A stretch of DNA of 10,016 nt, taken from contig JBBSVW010000062.1 of assembly GCA_038046605.1 (NCBI GenBank), positions 1 through 10,016 of the forward strand, read 5' to 3'. Below are positions 3,380 through 10,016 of the stretch, one piece after another (the stretch's first letter is position 1; each line of letters starts with the position of its first letter). A model generated the notes under the pieces. It did no database searches and was not told where the DNA came from. It was given only the letters and a program-made list of their open reading frames with translations. Source of the DNA: Candidatus Micrarchaeota archaeon. Lineage in GTDB: Archaea > Micrarchaeota > Micrarchaeia > Norongarragalinales > SBBD01. The position numbers and the translations under genes are program-made.

Positions 3380-3434
3380 AAAAAATGAAAAGCCGTCCTT
3401 TTAAGAACAGATCGGCTCGATCATTTTTGTCCAA
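3380..3434 (+). other. tRNA-Leu D-loop intron at ~21/22, 55 nt
   Basis: Relaxed BHB: central helix GGTC(3374-3377)/GTCC(3429-3432) with 3 of 4 pairs, AAA bulges, 8-bp inner helix AAAAATGA(3381-3388)/TCATTTTT(3421-3428), then AGCCG/CGGCT. Confidence 0.82.
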
Positions 3435-3480
3435 ATGCGCAGGGTTGAGGTCTCTGTTCCTTAGGGATGCCTGGGTTCAA

Positions 3481-3728
3481 AGGCCTTGCTTTTCTTTTTT
3501 CCGACCGTGCAGAAAAAAATTTCTGCGCGGCCCCAAAGAGCTTCGCTCTTTGCGGAAAAGAAAAGCGATGGCGCCGCAATGCGCTAGAATCGCGAGATTC
3601 TAGGCATGCGCAGAATCCAAAGATTCTGCCGCAAAGAAAAAAGGTTTTGATGCGCGCATCATATGTGTTTCTTTGGCGCGGTGCCGTCCGCACCTTTCTT
3701 TCAAAAGAAAGGGGCAAGGCGCGGATAG
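3481..3728 (+). other. tRNA-Leu T-loop intron at ~58/59, 248 nt, multi-branched
   Basis: Removal restores GGG-TTCAAAT-CCC. Central helix GTTC(3475-3478)/GGAT(3723-3726) with two G-U pairs, bulges AAA and AGA, closing helix GCCTTGC(3483-3489)/GCAAGGC(3714-3720). Confidence 0.78.
3487..3567 (+). repeat. Palindromic MITE/REP-like element, copy 2 (inside the tRNA-Leu intron)
   Basis: Terminal inverted repeats GCTTTTCTTTTttCCG / CGGAAAAGAAAAGC enclose CCGTGCAGAAA-aaaa-TTTCTGCGCGG (3505-3530) and CAAAGAGC-ttc-GCTCTTTG (3534-3552). Confidence 0.65.
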
Positions 3729-4130: not shown

Positions 4131-4534
4131 TAGTAATAGACGCCGATGGGGCAATTGTAGGAAGGCTTGCAGCAATAGTTGCCAAGCGGTCACTCCAGGG
4201 GGAGGAAGTGGTCATTGTGAACGCGGAAAAAGCGGTCATCAGCGGGGATCCCCTCAAAACCAAGGAAAAATATTACAACAGGAGGCAGATGACAAACAAG
4301 GCAAATCCAGCTGAGGCGGCAAAGTGGCCGCGAAGGCCGGATTTATTGCTAAAGCGCATCATTACAGGCATGCTGCCAAAGCACTCGGGCAGGGGCAAGG
4401 CGGCGGGTTCCCGCATCAAGGCGTTCCTTGGGGTACCAAAGGAATATGCCGGAAAGGAAACAAAATTTGAGTTCACATCCGCAAGGCTTGCCAACAAATA
4501 CATGAATTTAAAGGAATTGACGCAAGGAATCTAA
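4127..4534 (+). CDS. rpl13: 50S ribosomal protein L13 (uL13)
   Basis: MIVIDADGAIVGRLAAIVAK..L.GEEVVIVNAEKAVISG, PRRPDLLLKRIITGMLP; ATGA overlap with rpl18e. Confidence 0.96.
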   Translation: MIVIDADGAIVGRLAAIVAKRSLQGEEVVIVNAEKAVISGDPLKTKEKYYNRRQMTNKANPAEAAKWPRRPDLLLKRIITGMLPKHSGRGKAAGSRIKAFLGVPKEYAGKETKFEFTSARLANKYMNLKELTQGI

Positions 4535-4542
4535 GTGATAAT

Positions 4543-5010
4543 ATGACGGAAATCGCTCAGGAAAAGGAGGCCCAAAAAGTTGCCGACGCATTGATTGGCG
4601 CTGACAAGAAGAAGAAAAGGAAGGCAATTGTCACAAGGGGCAAACGCAAGGAGGCAATTGCGCGCGCGACCATTGTCGAGGGATCCGGAAAAATTTACAT
4701 CAACGGCAAAATGCTTAGCTCATATGATTCACCCTTCCTTAACGAGGTTGTGGGCGAGCCGCTGAATTTTGTAACGGATCACAATTTCGATATCCGAATC
4801 AATGTTCGCGGCGGGGGCTTTTCGGGACAGGCGCAGGCAGCAAGGACCGCAATTGCCAGGGCGCTTGTAAAATTCACCAAGGATGACAAATTGAAAGCGG
4901 CATACGTTGCTTATGACCGCAGCCTTCTAGTGGAGGATCCAAGGCGCGTTGAACCGAAGAAATTCAAGGGCCCAAAGGCAAGGGCAAGGTTCACGAAATC
5001 ATACCGTTAA
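4543..5010 (+). CDS. rps9: 30S ribosomal protein S9 (uS9)
   Basis: GKRKEAIARA, VRGGGFSGQAQAARTAIARALV, YDRSLLVEDPRRVEPKKFKGPKARARFTKSYR. Confidence 0.96.
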   Translation: MTEIAQEKEAQKVADALIGADKKKKRKAIVTRGKRKEAIARATIVEGSGKIYINGKMLSSYDSPFLNEVVGEPLNFVTDHNFDIRINVRGGGFSGQAQAARTAIARALVKFTKDDKLKAAYVAYDRSLLVEDPRRVEPKKFKGPKARARFTKSYR

Positions 5011-5124
5011 CTTAATATTCTCCTCTCCAGTAGGCGATATGTCATATTGGGCATAGCATCGAACGGAAGTCAATTTTTTTCCGTAAAACATGCCCACCTA
5101 AATCATTGTAATTGGTAGATCATT

Positions 5125-5490
5125 GTGGCAAGAGGAAGGAAGCGAGTATTGAAAGTGTGCCCAGAATGCGGAAGCACGCAGGTCAAGCCCGCAAAGGAAA
5201 TTGACGAATGGGCATCCATTGAAGAGCAGATGAATTCGTCCGGCGGGGACAAGCACGAATGCCAGGAGTGCGGCTACAAGGGAGAGCTCATTGGGATTGC
5301 GGAAACCCCGGAGGAGGATGAAGCTTCAGAGGACAAGGAAGAGGATGAATTGGAGGCAAAACCGGCGCCCATAACAAAAGTGGAAGTGATAAAGCCGGAA
5401 AAAAGCACGGCGGTAAAATCGGGAAAAGCGCAAAAAGCAAAATCAAAAAAAGGCAAAAAAATAAAGCCGGGAAAGAAACTTAAAAAATAA
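5125..5490 (+). CDS. Hypothetical Zn-ribbon protein with acidic linker and Lys-rich tail
   Basis: CPECGS...CQECGY double CxxC knuckle, then EEDEASEDKEEDE, then a K-rich C-terminus. GTG start; same strand as the operon and fills the gap between rps9 and rpoN. Confidence 0.75.
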   Translation: MARGRKRVLKVCPECGSTQVKPAKEIDEWASIEEQMNSSGGDKHECQECGYKGELIGIAETPEEDEASEDKEEDELEAKPAPITKVEVIKPEKSTAVKSGKAQKAKSKKGKKIKPGKKLKK

Positions 5491-5587
5491 ATAATAAAAA
5501 TGAGCAAGTGGGATGGGACAATAAAAATCCAAATTTCTAAATCAATAATTCTTAAAATTAATCCAATAATAAAATGGTCGATGAAAT

Positions 5588-5803
5588 ATGATGATTCCCG
5601 TCCGGTGCTTTTCCTGTGGCAAGGTCGTTGCCGACAAGTACTATGAGTTCCGCGAGGAAATTGAGAAGACAAAGCACATGCATAAGGAAGGGGACGTTGG
5701 GAAGATCCTGGATAAGCTGGGGTATGAGCGCTACTGCTGCCGAAGGATGGTGCTTTCGCAGGAGGAGCTGATTGATGAAATATTGCCTTATTCCAGATAT
5801 TAG
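5588..5803 (+). CDS. rpoN: DNA-directed RNA polymerase subunit N (Rpo10)
   Basis: [14 protein letters not shown]...[15 protein letters not shown], the RPB10/RpoN signature. Confidence 0.97.
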
Positions 5804-5938
5804 GATTTCCGTCTGCTTATTTTTTGCAGCCCATCCCCACGCGGCTTTGCGCATGAATTGGTTGAAGACTACGGCCGCTTGAGGTTTGCTGCTCCCATAT
5901 CTACAGCCACTCGGATTTTTTATGCAGATCCTAACCAT

Positions 5939-5954
5939 GCAAAAAGTATATTAA
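5939..5954 (+). promoter_or_regulatory. Putative BRE/TATA promoter of the aro operon
   Basis: GCAAAAAG-TATATTAA ends ~25 nt upstream of the leader ATG (5979), the spacing expected for a near-leaderless archaeal transcript. Confidence 0.6.
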
Positions 5955-5978
5955 CCAGAACCCGCACAACGTATTCCT

Positions 5979-6053
5979 ATGGCTAGGGAAGTTCTTTCAA
6001 AATCTGTTTCTGCAGGTTTCTCTAGCTTCGGCTATTTCTATTTCTGGCAATAA
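5979..6053 (+). CDS. Putative aromatic amino acid-sensing leader peptide (24 aa, MAREVLSKSVSAGFSSFGYFYFWQ)
   Basis: ATG 5979 to TAA 6051-6053. Five consecutive aromatic codons TAT TTC TAT TTC TGG, plus two more Phe codons, directly upstream of the shikimate pathway genes. Confidence 0.8.
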   Translation: MAREVLSKSVSAGFSSFGYFYFWQ

Positions 6054-6133
6054 GCCCTCGGCAATCCGCTGATGGGCTTCTTTCCTGCGGGTCAGCAGCT
6101 CGCCAGGAAGGACGGGCATTTTTCTCTACTTTT
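6041..6133 (+). promoter_or_regulatory. Attenuator-like region: alternative hairpins followed by a U-rich tract
   Basis: Hairpin A AAGCCC-TCGGC/GCTGA-t-GGGCTT (6052-6079). Hairpin B TCTTTCCTG-CGGG/CTCG-c-CAGGAAGGA (6079-6112). Competing pairings GCTGAT(6068-6073)/GTCAGC(6091-6096) and TTTCTGGC(6041-6048)/GCCAGGAA(6102-6109). TTTTTCTCTACTTTT at 6119-6133. Confidence 0.62.
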
Positions 6134-6170
6134 AGCTTTACCCCTGTCAATCAACAAATAGGTGAATGAA

Positions 6171-7187
6171 ATGATCATAGTAATGAAGCCGGAGGCTACG
6201 AAGGAGGAAATAGAGCATGTGAAAAGCGTGGTGGAAAAGCACGGCCTTGGCATCCACAAGCTGAGCCGGGGCGTGAAGCAAACGGTCATTGGGCTGGTGG
6301 GAAACACCCGCGCGATCTCTGAGAAGCAGTTTGAGATTTTGGACGGTGTGGAGGAAGTCGTGCGCGTGCAGAAGGCATACAAGCTCGCGTCGCGCGAGTT
6401 CCAGAAGGAAAATACAATGGTGGAAGTGGACGGGGTAAAGATAGGCGGGGAAGAAATAGTTGTGATTGCGGGGCCGTGCGCAGTCGAGAGCAGGGACCAA
6501 TTTCTTGAGGCGGCGCTTGCGGTGAAAAAAAGTGGCGCAAAGATATTGCGGGGAAGCATATTCAAGCCGCGCACCTCGCCCTACGATTTCCAGGGAATCG
6601 GCACGGACGGCTTGAAGCTGCTGGAAGAGGCGCGGGATGCAACCGGCTTGCTGATTGAAACGGAGGTGATGCACCCAGAGCACGTGCGGATGGTTGCACC
6701 GTACGTAGACATGCTCAGGATCGGTGCCAGGAACATGCAGAACTTCGACCTGCTTAAGCAGGTGGGAAGAAGCGAAAAGCCCGCGATCCTGAAGAGGGGG
6801 CTTTCCGCAACCATACACGAATTCCTGATGGCGGCGGAATACATCCTAAGCGAAGGCAACCCCAACGTAATTTTGTGCGAGCGCGGCATAAGGACATTCG
6901 TTACGGAGACACGGAACACGCTGGATTTGAACGCGGTTCCGCTGGTAAAATCACTCACGCACCTGCCGATAATTGTGGACCCCTCGCATGGAACCGGAAA
7001 ATACGAACTGGTCGAGCCCATGAGCATGGCTTCGATTGCAGCCGGAGCAGACGGCCTGATGATAGAGGTGCACCCGCGGCCTGAGGAAGCACTGAGCGAC
7101 GGGCCGCAGCAATTGACGCCGAAGAGGTTCGGGGTGCTGATGCAGAATTGCCGGAAGGTCGCGGAAGCGGTTGGGAGGAGGATGTAA
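6171..7187 (+). CDS. aroF: 3-deoxy-7-phosphoheptulonate (DAHP) synthase, type I-beta with N-terminal regulatory (ACT/ferredoxin-like) domain
   Basis: MIIVMK N-terminal domain as in the Thermotoga-type enzyme; [57 protein letters not shown]...SDGPQ. ATG 6171 follows an AGGTGA ribosome-binding site. Confidence 0.95.
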
Positions 7188-7188
7188 A

Positions 7189-8262
7189 ATGGACGAAATT
7201 GCACTCGAAGTGAAGGGAGAAAGCAAGAAGTGCAGAATCCTAGTGGACGGCCGTGCGAAGGAAGCGATGGAAATTGCGGATGCACTGCACCCATCCAAAA
7301 TCGCGATAATCTGCTCCCCCAACACAAGGAGGATAGCAGAAGGCCTTGCGGATGAGGCAAAAAACGCAGCAATAATTCAGGTTTCCGACGGGGAGCGGGC
7401 GAAAAATTTGGGGTCTGTGGAAAGGCTGTATTCTTCGTTCCTGAAGGCGCGCTTGAACAGGAAATCCGTTGCGATAATCGTGGGGGGAGGCTCGCTCGGA
7501 GATACTGCCGCGTTCGCATGCTCGACTTTCATGCGCGGCATCCGGTTCATTCAGGTTCCGACAACCCTGCTGGCAATGGCCGACAGCAGCATCGGCGGCA
7601 AAAACGGCGTCAATTTCATGGGAAAGAACCTGGTAGGGACATTCGCGCAGCCATCAGCAGTGGTGATTGATTTTTCCCTCCTGAAAACGCTTCCGAGAGC
7701 GCAGATTCAAAACGGGATTGCCGAAATAGTGAAGTGCGGCTGCATCCGCGATGGGGCGCTTTTCAGTTTCATGGGCAAGAACGCTGGAAAAATTATTGGG
7801 CTGGAAGCGGAAGCGCTAGAATTCGCCGTCTCACGCGCAATAAAAATCAAAATGGGGATCGTTTCCAAGGATGAGACGGAAGAGCTGCACGGAAGCGGGA
7901 AGGGCCGCATGCTGCTTAATTTCGGCCATACGGTAGGGCATGCGCTGGAGAGAATAAGCAACTACGGGCTCCAGCACGGGGAAGCGGTTGCAATAGGAAT
8001 GGTAAAAGAAGCGGAAATTTGCGAACGGCTGGGAATTTGCGAAATCGGGACATCGGAAAAAATCGGCAAACTCCTGGAAAAATTCGGCCTGCCAACGCGG
8101 ATTGCTGGAAAAATCCCATTGCAAAAATTAGTTGCGCGGATGAGATTGGACAAGAAGAACATCTCGGGTAAAATCAGGCTTGCAGGGCTGCGGAAAATAG
8201 GGGAAGGGACAATTGTTGAAAATGTTGATGAACGCATGATTCGCGGGGTTTTGGGAAGATGA
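7189..8262 (+). CDS. aroB: 3-dehydroquinate synthase
   Basis: DGERAK, GGGSLGDTAAF, FMRGIRFIQVPTTLLAMADSSIGGKNGVN, KNLVGTFAQP, AEIVK, LNFGHTVGHALE, HGEAVAIGM, DKK. ATG 7189 lies just after the aroF stop. Confidence 0.95.
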   Translation: MDEIALEVKGESKKCRILVDGRAKEAMEIADALHPSKIAIICSPNTRRIAEGLADEAKNAAIIQVSDGERAKNLGSVERLYSSFLKARLNRKSVAIIVGGGSLGDTAAFACSTFMRGIRFIQVPTTLLAMADSSIGGKNGVNFMGKNLVGTFAQPSAVVIDFSLLKTLPRAQIQNGIAEIVKCGCIRDGALFSFMGKNAGKIIGLEAEALEFAVSRAIKIKMGIVSKDETEELHGSGKGRMLLNFGHTVGHALERISNYGLQHGEAVAIGMVKEAEICERLGICEIGTSEKIGKLLEKFGLPTRIAGKIPLQKLVARMRLDKKNISGKIRLAGLRKIGEGTIVENVDERMIRGVLGR

Positions 8263-9416
8263 ACATTGCATTGGTGGGATTGATGGGTGCCGGGAAGAGC
8301 AGCGTCGGAAGGGCAGTTGCACGCCGGCTGAAAATGAGATTCGCAGACACGGATGAGATGATTGAGATGGCGCAATGCGCAACAATTGCGCAAATTTTCG
8401 AGTCGCAGGGCGAGGAGGCATTCAGGCAAATGGAAAAACTGGCAATCCGGAGCGCCGCGTCGGAGGAAAATGCGGTGATCTCAACAGGCGGAGGCGCATT
8501 GCTATTGGCGGAAAATCTCCAGGCCCTAAGGGAGAATTCGGTGTTGTTCTACTTGAAGGCGAGGCCGGAGGTGCTTGCAGAGCGTATCAAGAATAACTTG
8601 GAGAGGCCGCTTCTCACGGGAATGGGCAAAACGGCCAAAATAACGCGTCTCCTGAAGCATCGGGAGGAAAAATACCTGCAGGCGGATTTCGTTATCGATG
8701 CGAATGGCCCGATCGAAAGCACTTCCGCAATAATTTTACATAAATTAAAATCGAAAGCGGCGCTGGTGGCAGTGATTGCGGAAGAGGATATTGGCGCACT
8801 TCTCAGGAAAATCAATGCCGCTAAAAAAAGGGGGGCCGAAATTGCGGAGTTGAGGCTCGACTTCATGAAATCGCCCACGCCAGAGAATGTGAAAAAGGCC
8901 GTTTCAAAATGCCGGAAAGCGGGATTGAAATGCATAATCACTTGCAGGGAAAAGCGAGAGGGCGGCAAGTGGAAAATTGCAAATAAAATGGAATTGCTGA
9001 AAAAGGCCTTGGAAGACGGAGCGGATTTTATCGATCTGGAATTTTCCCTCGGAAAAATTGCTGATTTTCCCAAATCTAAAGTGATCGTTTCGTACCATAA
9101 TCTCAGAAAAACACCACCATTGGGAATTCTTATTCGGCTTATGGAAAAAATGAGCAAGGCCGGTAAAATTGTGAAAATCGTGTGCAAAACGCCCAACTTT
9201 GAAGATCAAAAAGCGCTTATGCGGCTGCTGGAAACAGCAAAAAAAAGGCAAATAAGATTGATCGCATTTGGCGTGGGAAGGGGCTCGAAGAGGAGCCGAA
9301 TCGTTGCAAGCCTGACGGGCTCGCGTTTCGTGTATGGGCATCTAGGTTTTTCGGTAGCTGAAGGGCAGCCAAGCTTTTCCGAGTTGAAAGGGGTGTTCGA
9401 TGGATGGAAGGGATGA
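8259..9416 (+). CDS. Bifunctional shikimate kinase (AroK, P-loop type) / type I 3-dehydroquinate dehydratase (AroD) fusion
   Basis: N-terminal ~165 aa: GLMGAGKSSVGR, FADTD, IFESQGEEAFRQME, VISTGGG, RPLL. C-terminal part: AELRLD, ITCREKREGG, DFIDLE, IVSYHN, IVKIV, SRI, AEGQ. Confidence 0.9.
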   Translation: MNIALVGLMGAGKSSVGRAVARRLKMRFADTDEMIEMAQCATIAQIFESQGEEAFRQMEKLAIRSAASEENAVISTGGGALLLAENLQALRENSVLFYLKARPEVLAERIKNNLERPLLTGMGKTAKITRLLKHREEKYLQADFVIDANGPIESTSAIILHKLKSKAALVAVIAEEDIGALLRKINAAKKRGAEIAELRLDFMKSPTPENVKKAVSKCRKAGLKCIITCREKREGGKWKIANKMELLKKALEDGADFIDLEFSLGKIADFPKSKVIVSYHNLRKTPPLGILIRLMEKMSKAGKIVKIVCKTPNFEDQKALMRLLETAKKRQIRLIAFGVGRGSKRSRIVASLTGSRFVYGHLGFSVAEGQPSFSELKGVFDGWKG

Positions 9417-10016
9417 AGGTTTTCGGGGTGATGGGAGGCGAAGGGGTAGCGGAGCATTCTCTCAGCCCTAGAATCTGGAATGCAGTATTCAGGAAGAGAA
9501 AAATTAACGCGGTTTACGGTGCCTTTGAAGTAAGGGAGAAGGAGTTGGCGCGAGCGGTGGAGGGAATCCGAACTCTCGGCATATCCGGGGTGAACATCAC
9601 AACTCCGCACAAAATTAAGGCCGTGAAATTTATTGATGAAATCTCTCCCGAAGTTGGAAGAATCGGCGCAGTAAACACAATTTCCAATAAAAATGGAATT
9701 CTCAGGGGATTCAACACGGATGCGAGCGCGCTGAAAAGGTTATTGCGAAACGAAAAAAAAGGGAAGGTGGTGATACTCGGCGCAGGCGGTGCTGCACGTG
9801 CGGCAGCGTTTGCGGCAGCTACGGCGGGAGAAATAATTATGGCAAACCACACCCCCTCAAACGCGATAGAAATTATTCGAAAAATGGGGTTGTCGATGAA
9901 TGCCAGAGCGCATGTGCTGAATGGGCTGGAGGCCGGAATCACCGATACGGACATAGTCATCAATTGCACTCCGATAGGGATGTACGCATCCGGAACCCCG
10001 CTTGAAGCAAGATTGC
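9413..10016 (+). CDS. aroE: Shikimate dehydrogenase (3' end beyond the window; not in the ORF track)
   Basis: Manual translation gives MKVFGVMG..HSLSPRIWN, GVNITTPHK, IGAVNTI, GFNTD, VVILGAGGAARA, DIVINCTPIGM. ATGA overlap with the upstream stop; an alternative in-frame ATG is at 9404. The frame is open to the window end. Confidence 0.93.
   Translation, partial: MKVFGVMGGEGVAEHSLSPRIWNAVFRKRKINAVYGAFEVREKELARAVEGIRTLGISGVNITTPHKIKAVKFIDEISPEVGRIGAVNTISNKNGILRGFNTDASALKRLLRNEKKGKVVILGAGGAARAAAFAAATAGEIIMANHTPSNAIEIIRKMGLSMNARAHVLNGLEAGITDTDIVINCTPIGMYASGTPLEARL

Follow-up and report, generated by a model that had tools for sequence, protein, structure and literature searches.

Does an archaeon regulate the synthesis of its aromatic amino acids by leader-peptide attenuation, the mechanism that gave the classic proof of bacterial control through coupled transcription and translation? 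The question is raised by a 10,016-bp stretch of DNA (a complete contig, hereafter the window) from a genome of Candidatus Micrarchaeota (1.64 Mb, 91% complete, 46.8% GC), in which a 367-nt gap between the end of rpoN and the start of the gene for DAHP synthase (DAHPS) contains an upstream open reading frame (uORF) of 24 codons (5979..6053 on the + strand; ATG at 5979, TAA at 6051-6053) that encodes MAREVLSKSVSAGFSSFGYFYFWQ. Seven of its last 11 residues, FSSFGYFYFWQ, are aromatic (F, F, Y, F, Y, F, W), and Phe, Tyr and Trp are all represented. The putative control codons form a cluster from F14 to W23 (6018..6047, + strand) of five Phe, two Tyr and one Trp codons interspersed with Ser (TCT, AGC) and Gly (GGC), and a spacer of 117 nt separates the end of the uORF at 6053 from the DAHPS ATG at 6171. 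A preliminary description of this DNA had reported such an ORF, with all three end products of the pathway among its terminal residues, about 25 nt behind a TATA-like motif and 117 nt before DAHPS; sequence and translation confirm it, the distances measuring 24 nt and 117 nt. We consider the uORF very probably a functional cis-regulatory leader ORF, and on the basis of folding models we favour, with moderate confidence, a reading in which it is the leader-peptide gene of a ribosome-mediated attenuator that would control an aro-phe-tyr operon through premature termination at a downstream T tract.

The uORF locus is archaeal, as the preliminary description had supposed. A cluster of nine archaeal genes on the + strand of the same contig (S13, S4, S11, RpoD, a DUF167 protein, L18e, L13, S9 and RpoN) ends at 5803, at the left border of the gap. 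For the S4 protein, a 'Candidatus Norongarragalinales archaeon' metagenome-assembled genome (MAG) has a counterpart with 77% identity, the matches that follow are Micrarchaeota, and the host is classified in Archaea; Nanobdellati (DPANN); Microcaldota; Ca. Micrarchaeia. Independent Logan contigs (DNA) from two groundwater runs cover 4507-6410 and 4500-6695 with no difference to the window, and a second study contributes a 151-nt contig identical to 6025-6175; because the contigs of the two runs cross the junction without a difference, the raw assemblies link rpoN through the uORF to the beginning of DAHPS. A search for sequencing runs that contain the locus found none of RNA. No tRNA was found in the window, and an Rfam search (E <= 1), which included the Phe, Trp, His, Leu and Thr leader families, returned no match in the window or in 13 related loci.

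To judge whether the uORF is more than a chance reading frame we compared 38 archaeal DAHPS loci, comprising 17 of the order, two from other DPANN MAGs and 19 from other families of the class; a DAHPS gene was found in 13 of 41 close relatives, and the wider samples gave 17 of 68 genomes for the order and 69 of 401 for the phylum. By eye, a short ORF with many F, Y and W residues (18-38 codons) precedes DAHPS in 33 of the 38 loci: in 15 of the 19 from the order and the two other DPANN MAGs, and in 18 of the 19 class-level loci, for example MAIADENRSYWFGFFSFGYRYQENHE and MSNKAKVNNKVFYFFSFSFWY. At the four loci of the first set that lack such an ORF, transketolase or transaldolase genes lie directly ahead of DAHPS; in one genome with this tkt/tal-DAHPS arrangement (G016), inspection of ~1.4 kb upstream revealed no clear leader. 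A strict automatic test, which demands an ORF upstream of DAHPS with at least six aromatic residues of at least two kinds among 11 near its C-terminus, was passed by 25 of the 38 loci, against 2 of 38 reverse complements and 15 of 1900 dinucleotide shuffles, in a sample of kin in which such counts exaggerate the independent support. Since the loci that pass far exceed both kinds of control, the uORF is not a product of chance, and the aromatic uORF on whose presence in relatives the preliminary description had staked its case is found there. Within the window's own genome, 2925 short ORFs lie upstream of crudely called genes on the same strand, and 10 of them reach at least seven aromatics in ten residues, mostly as poly-F runs.

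The 32 uORFs that begin with ATG share a definite architecture. Their length is 18-27 codons in 29 and 33-38 codons in three; the aromatic fraction is 0.51 in the final 12 residues against 0.10 in the remainder, and the last aromatic codon lies 0-2 codons from the stop in 24. Endings directly before the stop include ..WRFGYFYFYFA (L003, L004, L006), ..FSFGYFYWQN (L008), ..RFGYFYFK (L010), ..FSFGYFG (L012, L094) and, in a MAG labelled Woesearchaeota, ..AYSFYYFSY (L017). Phe and Tyr occur together in 31 of the 32, and all three aromatics in 23. A joint reading of Phe, Tyr and Trp, which the preliminary description had envisaged, therefore holds for Phe and Tyr and is weak for Trp, of which the window's uORF has one codon and nine of the 32 have none. 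Scans of metagenome and genome collections for a pattern coding FGYFYFW gave, among the 238 matches listed, three with a DAHPS nearby: one (L303) whose uORF peptide is identical to that of L182, and two in Calditrichota, to which we return below. The other matches listed are unrelated, and among them the scans yielded no deeper alignment of the window's type of leader.

It might be argued that the conserved entity is an RNA element, or a small hydrophobic peptide with a function of its own, and that the aromatic codons are a by-product, for instance of U-rich codons imposed by pairing. Within the cluster, Ser and Gly codons do indeed hardly vary (AGC in 16 of 19, GGC in 14 of 18), which hints at an additional RNA constraint, and in part of the relatives (clade B, defined below) the last codons of the uORF (YQENH) form the 5' arm of a hairpin, just as the apical sequence of a hairpin downstream of the window's uORF (P2, below) is conserved. 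Yet in the F-G-Y-F-Y-F block the residues stay while the wobble bases drift between TTC and TTT, TAT and TAC, and GGC and GGA: the window reads TTC GGC TAT TTC TAT TTC, L003 reads TTT GGA TAT TTC TAT TTC, L010 reads TTT GGC TAT TTC TAT TTT, and L008 reads TTT GGC TAC TTT TAT. The uORFs keep their start, frame and stop and do not conserve their N-terminal halves; bacteria show the same peptide logic with a wholly different RNA downstream, no Rfam family matches the window or the 13 loci searched, and one would not expect a peptide acting in trans to accompany DAHPS in two gene clades. We regard such an RNA-only or peptide-only function as unlikely, and indeed as very improbable. (An ungapped codon comparison of close pairs, with 11 synonymous and 67 non-synonymous differences, was confounded by indels and set aside.) That the uORF is very likely a functional leader we conclude from the retention of its start, frame, length, stop position and aromatic cluster while DAHPS fell to ~50% identity, over two gene clades and behind archaeal-type promoters.

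Several arrangements seen among these leaders are recorded here in their own right. In the class-level loci L188-L200 a conserved GTGGTTT lies 5-12 nt upstream of the uORF ATG (in L195 it possibly supplies the GTG start) and also forms the 3' arm of a hairpin behind the uORF; the codons at the uORF end (GAGAACCAC) could pair with either copy, and the three segments may constitute a switch. In the window, TTTCTCTA is present twice (6017-6024 and 6121-6128), once where the cluster has its first Phe codon and once within the T tract, and codons 2-4 of the uORF (UAGGGAA, 5983-5989) are able to pair with either copy (duplex energy -14.5 against -7.4 kcal/mol), such that a ribosome over the first copy could leave the T tract hidden; an 8-nt repeat per 200 nt is not rare by chance. 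L094 and L098 (genome G048, contig C14) are a tandem DAHPS pair, a short form lacking the regulatory domain followed by a full-length one, with an aromatic leader before the first, and the Woesearchaeota-labelled L017 likewise has two tandem DAHPS copies.

Initiation at the uORF appears to follow archaeal rules. An A-rich stretch and TATA-like box (AAAAAG TATATTAA; 5941..5954, + strand, the box at 5947-5954) is centred ~28 nt upstream of the uORF ATG, the TATATTAA box ends 24 nt before it, and this spacing implies a predicted mRNA that is leaderless or nearly so. No sigma-70-like site was found at 5500-6400. Scanning from -70 to -15 of the uORF ATG with the consensus TTTAWAWA gave TATA-like boxes with at most one mismatch, 25-60 nt upstream of the uORF, in 25 of 31 loci, compared with 0 of 31 control windows inside DAHPS. 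The archaeal-type promoter proposed in the preliminary description is accordingly well represented across the loci compared, while in the window itself it is a poor match: its own box has two mismatches and lies outside the 25.

What follows the uORF is a spacer that is predicted to fold strongly. Hairpin P1 (6053..6078, + strand), the proposed anti-terminator, begins at the last base of the stop codon and is predicted both in the minimum free energy (MFE) structure and by masked folding, in which the leader is folded with a 28-nt ribosome footprint forced single-stranded. Hairpin P2 (6079..6112, + strand), with the apical loop CAGCA (6093-6097), is identified from the MFE structure and from conservation. 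The segment with both hairpins (6048-6124) folds at -34.4 kcal/mol (z = -3.74), and none of 200 shuffles is as stable. P2 recurs in L182, L003, L004, L006, L007, L008, L010, L012 and L095, its loop lying 36-56 nt past the uORF stop, with the apical consensus GGU-YNGCR-RCY across relatives; 84% of the cells of its inner stem are paired, four of the seven pairs have compensatory changes, and the covariation score of 0.495 (0.297 in shuffles) was reached by 1 of 500 shuffles. The motif has one chance match among 78 bacterial loci. After P2 come ACGGGCA and the T-rich tract TTTTTCTCTACTTTT (T5 plus T4; 6119..6133, + strand), the proposed site of attenuation by premature termination, and in the relatives of clade A, the DAHPS clade that contains the window, P2 is followed by GGG and then by T4-T6 or TTCTTCC. 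The T5 tract stands where the preliminary description expected a short RNA to end (~6120-6133). Across the genome 104 T5 tracts fall within the first 10 nt after stop codons, against 6-18 per 10-nt bin inside genes, and oligo-T is this genome's ordinary archaeal-type 3'-end signal.

From these elements we propose the following sequence of events. Transcription would start ~25 nt past the TATA-like box, placing the uORF at or near the 5' end, and a ribosome would be on the uORF while RNA polymerase makes the 117-nt spacer; coupling of transcription and translation is known in archaea. With charged Phe- and Tyr-tRNA (and Trp-tRNA) the ribosome would reach the stop codon and cover the 5' arm of P1 (6053-6078). 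The 3' part of P1 so released would extend P2 to the base beside T5 (6119-6123), leaving the U tract single-stranded, and transcription would end. The extended form of P2 (6076..6117, + strand), in which GCU at 6076-6078 pairs with GGC at 6115-6117, ends 1 nt short of the T tract and is predicted only if P1 is prevented. With an uncharged aromatic tRNA the ribosome would instead stall at 6018-6047, P1 would form, the helix beside the T tract would be absent and polymerase would continue into DAHP synthase.

Masked folding reproduces this switch in part. Placing the ribosome at the stop covers the 5' side of P1, the GCU and GGC segments pair and P2 ends one base before T5; moving it to the first aromatic codon lets P1 form and leaves P2 6 nt short. 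For the four bases ahead of T5 the predicted probability of pairing is 0.65 in the former state and 0.15 in the latter, the mean over all aromatic codons being 0.48. The effect is more pronounced in some relatives: L003 and L006 are predicted to form a helix of 6-7 bp (CCCGGAC/GUCCGGG) that closes around P2 beside a U-rich tract, and only with P1 masked. Among ten leaders examined for a helix that abuts the T tract only when the ribosome is at the stop, it was predicted in L182, L003, L006 and L010, weakly in the window and partially in L007 and L012. Of 29 leaders, 15 had a longest T run that was more accessible with the ribosome at the stop than with it stalled, and 4 showed the reverse; accessibility lay above that of partial shuffles in 19 of 29.

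Against termination controlled in this manner stand a number of our own results. The predicted switch in the window amounts to three extra base pairs and is weak, and with longer RNA the accessibility of its U tract is nearly constant (0.95 versus 0.88-0.89); three of ten clade-A leaders (L004, L008, L095) lack the switch, and L010 moves in the opposite direction in the accessibility test. A consensus terminator scan of 5500-6400 gave no sites, and bacterial-type terminators are not in excess across the window (14 versus 13.7 expected). At ordinary 3' ends of this genome hairpins before T5 are likewise in no excess (29% versus 26% in shuffles); hairpin-aided termination is for this reason not the organism's norm, and a structured leader is unusual for the genome. 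The poor promoter match in the window and the kinship of the compared loci, both described above, belong on the same side of the balance.

These results bear on the main rival, in which the uORF does sense the charging of aromatic tRNA but acts on translation: remodelling of the spacer, or re-initiation, would alter use of the DAHPS ribosome binding site (RBS), the Shine-Dalgarno (SD)-like AGGTGA (6160..6165, + strand; read from the sequence, 5 nt upstream of the ATG), and the T tract would be incidental. Conservation of the uORF fits this equally well, termination by archaeal RNA polymerase is not known to depend on hairpins, the genome's ordinary 3' ends are without them, and some class-level loci have short spacers (28-118 nt) that end at a strong SD. 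The MFE structure of the full-length leader even pairs codons at 6027-6037 with AAATAGGTGAA just upstream of the DAHPS start. This last pairing is nevertheless not special. Masking of the SD by the control codons, in which 10 of 11 bases pair by eye, was rejected as evidence on two grounds: 27% of the genome's gene starts pair equally well or better, and over 32 loci the cognate RBS ranks no better overall than non-cognate ones. Translational control would also leave unexplained the GGG and T-rich tract that follow P2 in clade A and the U tracts within hairpin arms in clade B. We judge it possible and on the whole unlikely, and keep to premature termination at the T tract as the preferred reading. 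In favour of an attenuator the window has a short ORF rich in codons for the end products of the pathway, placed upstream on the same strand with a candidate promoter before it, weak as the window's box is.

Clade B, the second archaeal DAHPS clade, presents a different geometry. Here an A-rich arm supplied by the last uORF codons (..YQENH) or by the bases after the stop pairs with a downstream GUGGUUUUCCUG, often with T5-T7 in the loop. A hairpin beside the U tract is predicted with a stalled ribosome and blocked with a ribosome at the stop, which is the wrong logic by bacterial rules and another count against attenuation of the ordinary kind; by eye, no terminator of the 3:4 type was found in this clade. 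For the sign to be right, pairing would have to conceal the U tract from the termination machinery of archaea. It is tempting to hypothesize, from the folding models, that the archaeal form of the device hides or exposes a U tract rather than using a hairpin to dislodge polymerase: in clade B and in family f11 the U tract would pair with the A-rich arm, and a ribosome at the stop would cover that arm. The factor aCPSF1/FttA is described as a U-tract-dependent archaeal termination factor (PMC8716108), and gating of its access to the U tract would give a ribosome-controlled, factor-dependent attenuator.

Where might such a leader have come from? The nearest DAHPS outside the phylum are bacterial (53-60% identity), and at least 11 of the 78 bacterial DAHPS loci fetched carry aromatic leaders. 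Bacterial loci with such leaders are Calditrichota L014, L443 and L465, Syntrophaceae/Smithella L025, L035 and L075, Brocadiaceae L054 and L080, and Bacillota/Fusobacteriota L039, L051, L073, L085 and L090. The seven bacterial leaders that were folded all have textbook terminators of a hairpin and T5-T8. Calditrichota leaders read ..HFFGYFYFWFQ.. or ..FFGFYFGYYYWTQ and have canonical terminators before a DAHPS; at the two Calditrichota loci recovered with the FGYFYFW pattern, ..HFFGYFYFWFQ.. follows TTGAC/TATAAT-type promoters and precedes a terminator and DAHPS. We found no published description of these bacterial DAHPS leaders in open-access text. The bacterial and archaeal leaders thus precede the same gene family and have similar motifs (FGYFYFW; YYYWTQ at the bacterial stop, FWQ at the archaeal), and differ in their surroundings: TTGAC..TATAAT-type promoters and a GC-rich hairpin with T5-T8 in bacteria, as opposed to TATA-like boxes and either P2 (clade A) or an A-tract/U-tract hairpin overlapping the end of the uORF (clade B) in archaea.

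A quick maximum-likelihood tree of 117 DAHPS sequences, rooted at the midpoint only and with bacteria sampled by similarity, places the window within a clade of 18 archaeal rows (SH-aLRT 96), beside a clade (95) of Calditrichota L014, the Woesearchaeota-labelled L017 and Brocadiaceae, all with leaders; the grouping of these two is weakly supported (84) and does not settle the branching. The second archaeal clade (100) consists of the other 18 class-level rows and L013, and lies among Bacillota and others. Judging from these sequences, the leader element is of a bacterial kind and probably shares ancestry with the bacterial leaders, and gene and leader probably moved together between the domains, in one direction or the other.

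In the window's genome the operon is a recent acquisition. DAHPS (6171..7187, + strand), the first gene, is of type I-beta with an N-terminal ferredoxin-like regulatory domain (Pfam PF00793, DAHP_synth_1, 9.3e-82; PF18152, 7.2e-22), and is followed on the same strand by 3-dehydroquinate synthase (7171-8262), a 385-aa fusion of an AroK-type shikimate kinase with a type I dehydroquinase (8259-9416) and shikimate dehydrogenase (aroE; from 9404), which the end of the contig truncates at 10015. Another contig, C106, opens with the C-terminus of this aroE, each contig carrying one half, and continues the operon with chorismate synthase, CM-PDT-ACT and a prephenate dehydrogenase-like gene. From a sequence motif we read the ORF that follows (C106:3194-4450) as a putative aroA (EPSP synthase), and the opposite strand carries trpE, trpG, trpD and further ORFs. 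The operon accordingly covers the common pathway and the Phe and Tyr branches, in agreement with a leader rich in F and Y. In most archaea shikimate kinase is of the GHMP type, and the AroK-type fusion adds a bacterial flavour.

The aromatic island as a whole (aroF-B-KD-E-C, pheA, a tyrA-like gene, the putative aroA and trp genes on the other strand) spans ~14.5 kb, from 5804 to 10016 of the window and from 1 to ~10290 of C106, at 51.5% GC versus 46.8% for the genome. Three congeners (L099-L101) retain the order S13..RpoN with no aro genes after it, their homology to the window stopping directly at the rpoN stop codon, and an RNA-like conserved element (GGGGTCGTGGGGTAATCTGG..) that lies directly 3' of rpoN in congeners is here displaced to C106, past trpE. 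A tRNA lies ~500 nt beyond the end of the island on C106. None of the six congeners searched has a DAHPS. The insertion relative to synteny, the composition and a gene content absent from congeners all mark the island as horizontally acquired. At its left edge a T6 tract (5820..5825, + strand), 17 nt past the rpoN stop codon (5801-5803), is likely the terminator of the ribosomal/RNA polymerase cluster, a reading based on the crowding of T5 tracts just after stop codons throughout the genome.

Recent arrival is a difficulty for a function in this particular host, and the claim of the preliminary description that the element is 'not a bacterial relic' does not stand as written, given its bacterial kind, its Calditrichota homologues with terminators and the inserted island on which the operon lies. 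The leader could then be a bacterial attenuator carried in by transfer and now non-functional or constitutively leaky. The deviant GC content of the island, its position between rpoN and the RNA-like element and the absence of DAHPS from the six congeners are what one would expect of such a relic, as are the AroK-type kinase and the bacterial affinity of the nearest non-DPANN DAHPS (~55-60% identity), which have similar leaders. Yet the length, start, aromatic cluster and place of the uORF have been kept in two archaeal clades (SH-aLRT 96 and 100) and many families while DAHPS diverged to ~50% identity, and an unused 75-nt ORF would not outlast such divergence. Moreover, the sigma-70-type promoters of the bacterial loci are replaced by TATA-like boxes in archaea, and the canonical bacterial terminator by a different, covarying hairpin of which the bacterial loci show only the one chance match. 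It is this long retention across two archaeal DAHPS clades, and not the promoter alone, that argues for archaeal function, and a dead relic seems to us improbable. We therefore envisage an element of bacterial design that probably came into archaea with the DAHPS gene and that sits, in this genome, on the island.

A further result counts against the attenuator reading: the other amino-acid operons of the genome have no convincing leader, genome-wide scans gave poly-F noise and ORFs before non-biosynthetic genes, and a Trp leader before trpE was rejected, no W-rich uORF being conserved before trpE in 29 relatives. The candidate considered there, MVNGLIDPMVFEKFSWRA (C106, minus strand, ~10104-10160), lies ~45-100 nt upstream of trpE in the window's genome (G000), 27 nt downstream of a TTTATAAA box and with T-rich sequence after it, and MVNGLIDPMVFEKFSWRA has a single Trp codon. 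The leader is a DAHPS-linked device, with no evidence of a general use of attenuation in the organism.

Elsewhere in the window, two ribosomal protein genes have long N-terminal extensions that may conceal internal true starts or represent lineage-specific additions. In the S13 ORF (207-1292, + strand) the S13 domain begins at residue 196 of 361, and part of the extension can be aligned in L099 and L101; in the S11 ORF (1898-2479, + strand) the S11 domain begins at residue 71 of 193. Two further ORFs on the + strand, 5125-5490 (121 aa, zinc-ribbon-like, CPECGSTQV..) and 3385-3603 (72 aa), have no Pfam match, and segments of them (~27-58 residues) are 55-86% identical in congeners at equivalent positions of the ribosomal cluster.

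How does the leader compare with known systems? TrpY of Methanothermobacter and Tar of Thermococcus are DNA-binding protein regulators of archaeal aromatic and Trp genes; they control the same pathway and act at the promoter, without a uORF or an RNA switch. We found no report of leader-peptide attenuation in archaea in open-access full text and preprints, and in a 2021 review of archaeal transcription-translation coupling the words 'attenuation' and 'leader peptide' are both absent. The closest likeness is to the leader-peptide attenuators of bacterial aromatic amino acid operons (see PMC3082878), such as pheL-pheA and trpL-trpE of E. coli. These have a short leader ORF with a run of end-product codons near its stop, alternative hairpins and a U tract before the first gene; in trpL, a ribosome at the stop masks an arm of the anti-terminator, the logic predicted here for P1. 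Unlike these, the window has an archaeal host, a TATA-type promoter, a leaderless-type start and no tight hairpin directly before the U run, mixes Phe, Tyr and Trp codons in one leader that would control the common pathway, and matches no Rfam leader family. The leaderless polycysteine ORFs of mycobacteria, presented as cysteine-responsive attenuators (bioRxiv 10.1101/834739), likewise have a control-codon ORF as first cistron, and differ in their bacterial host and cysteine codons.

What is conserved here over two archaeal DAHPS clades is the uORF, its aromatic cluster and its position, and P2 is conserved with covariation. Leader-peptide attenuation is classical for bacteria; in the leader described here we see the same sensing principle in another domain, apparently rebuilt around archaeal initiation and oligo-U termination. 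We give about even chances to the broader proposition that leader-peptide attenuation operates in Archaea, having persisted in two DAHPS lineages across class Micrarchaeia and been fitted to archaeal promoters, to initiation of the leaderless type and to termination at oligo-U. Comparison of the sequences suggests that a ribosome-sensing attenuator known only from bacteria also works in archaea. As it occurs in some thirty Micrarchaeota genomes, the leader would be a mutable test object for the question of whether an archaeal ribosome communicates with archaeal RNA polymerase, and of whether RNA structure modulates oligo-U or aCPSF1-dependent termination, and it bears on how a bacterial cis-regulatory device is re-fitted after transfer across domains. 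Some DPANN archaea, usually viewed as auxotrophic symbionts, possess, and may well regulate, a complete aromatic pathway that travels between lineages in the form of an island.

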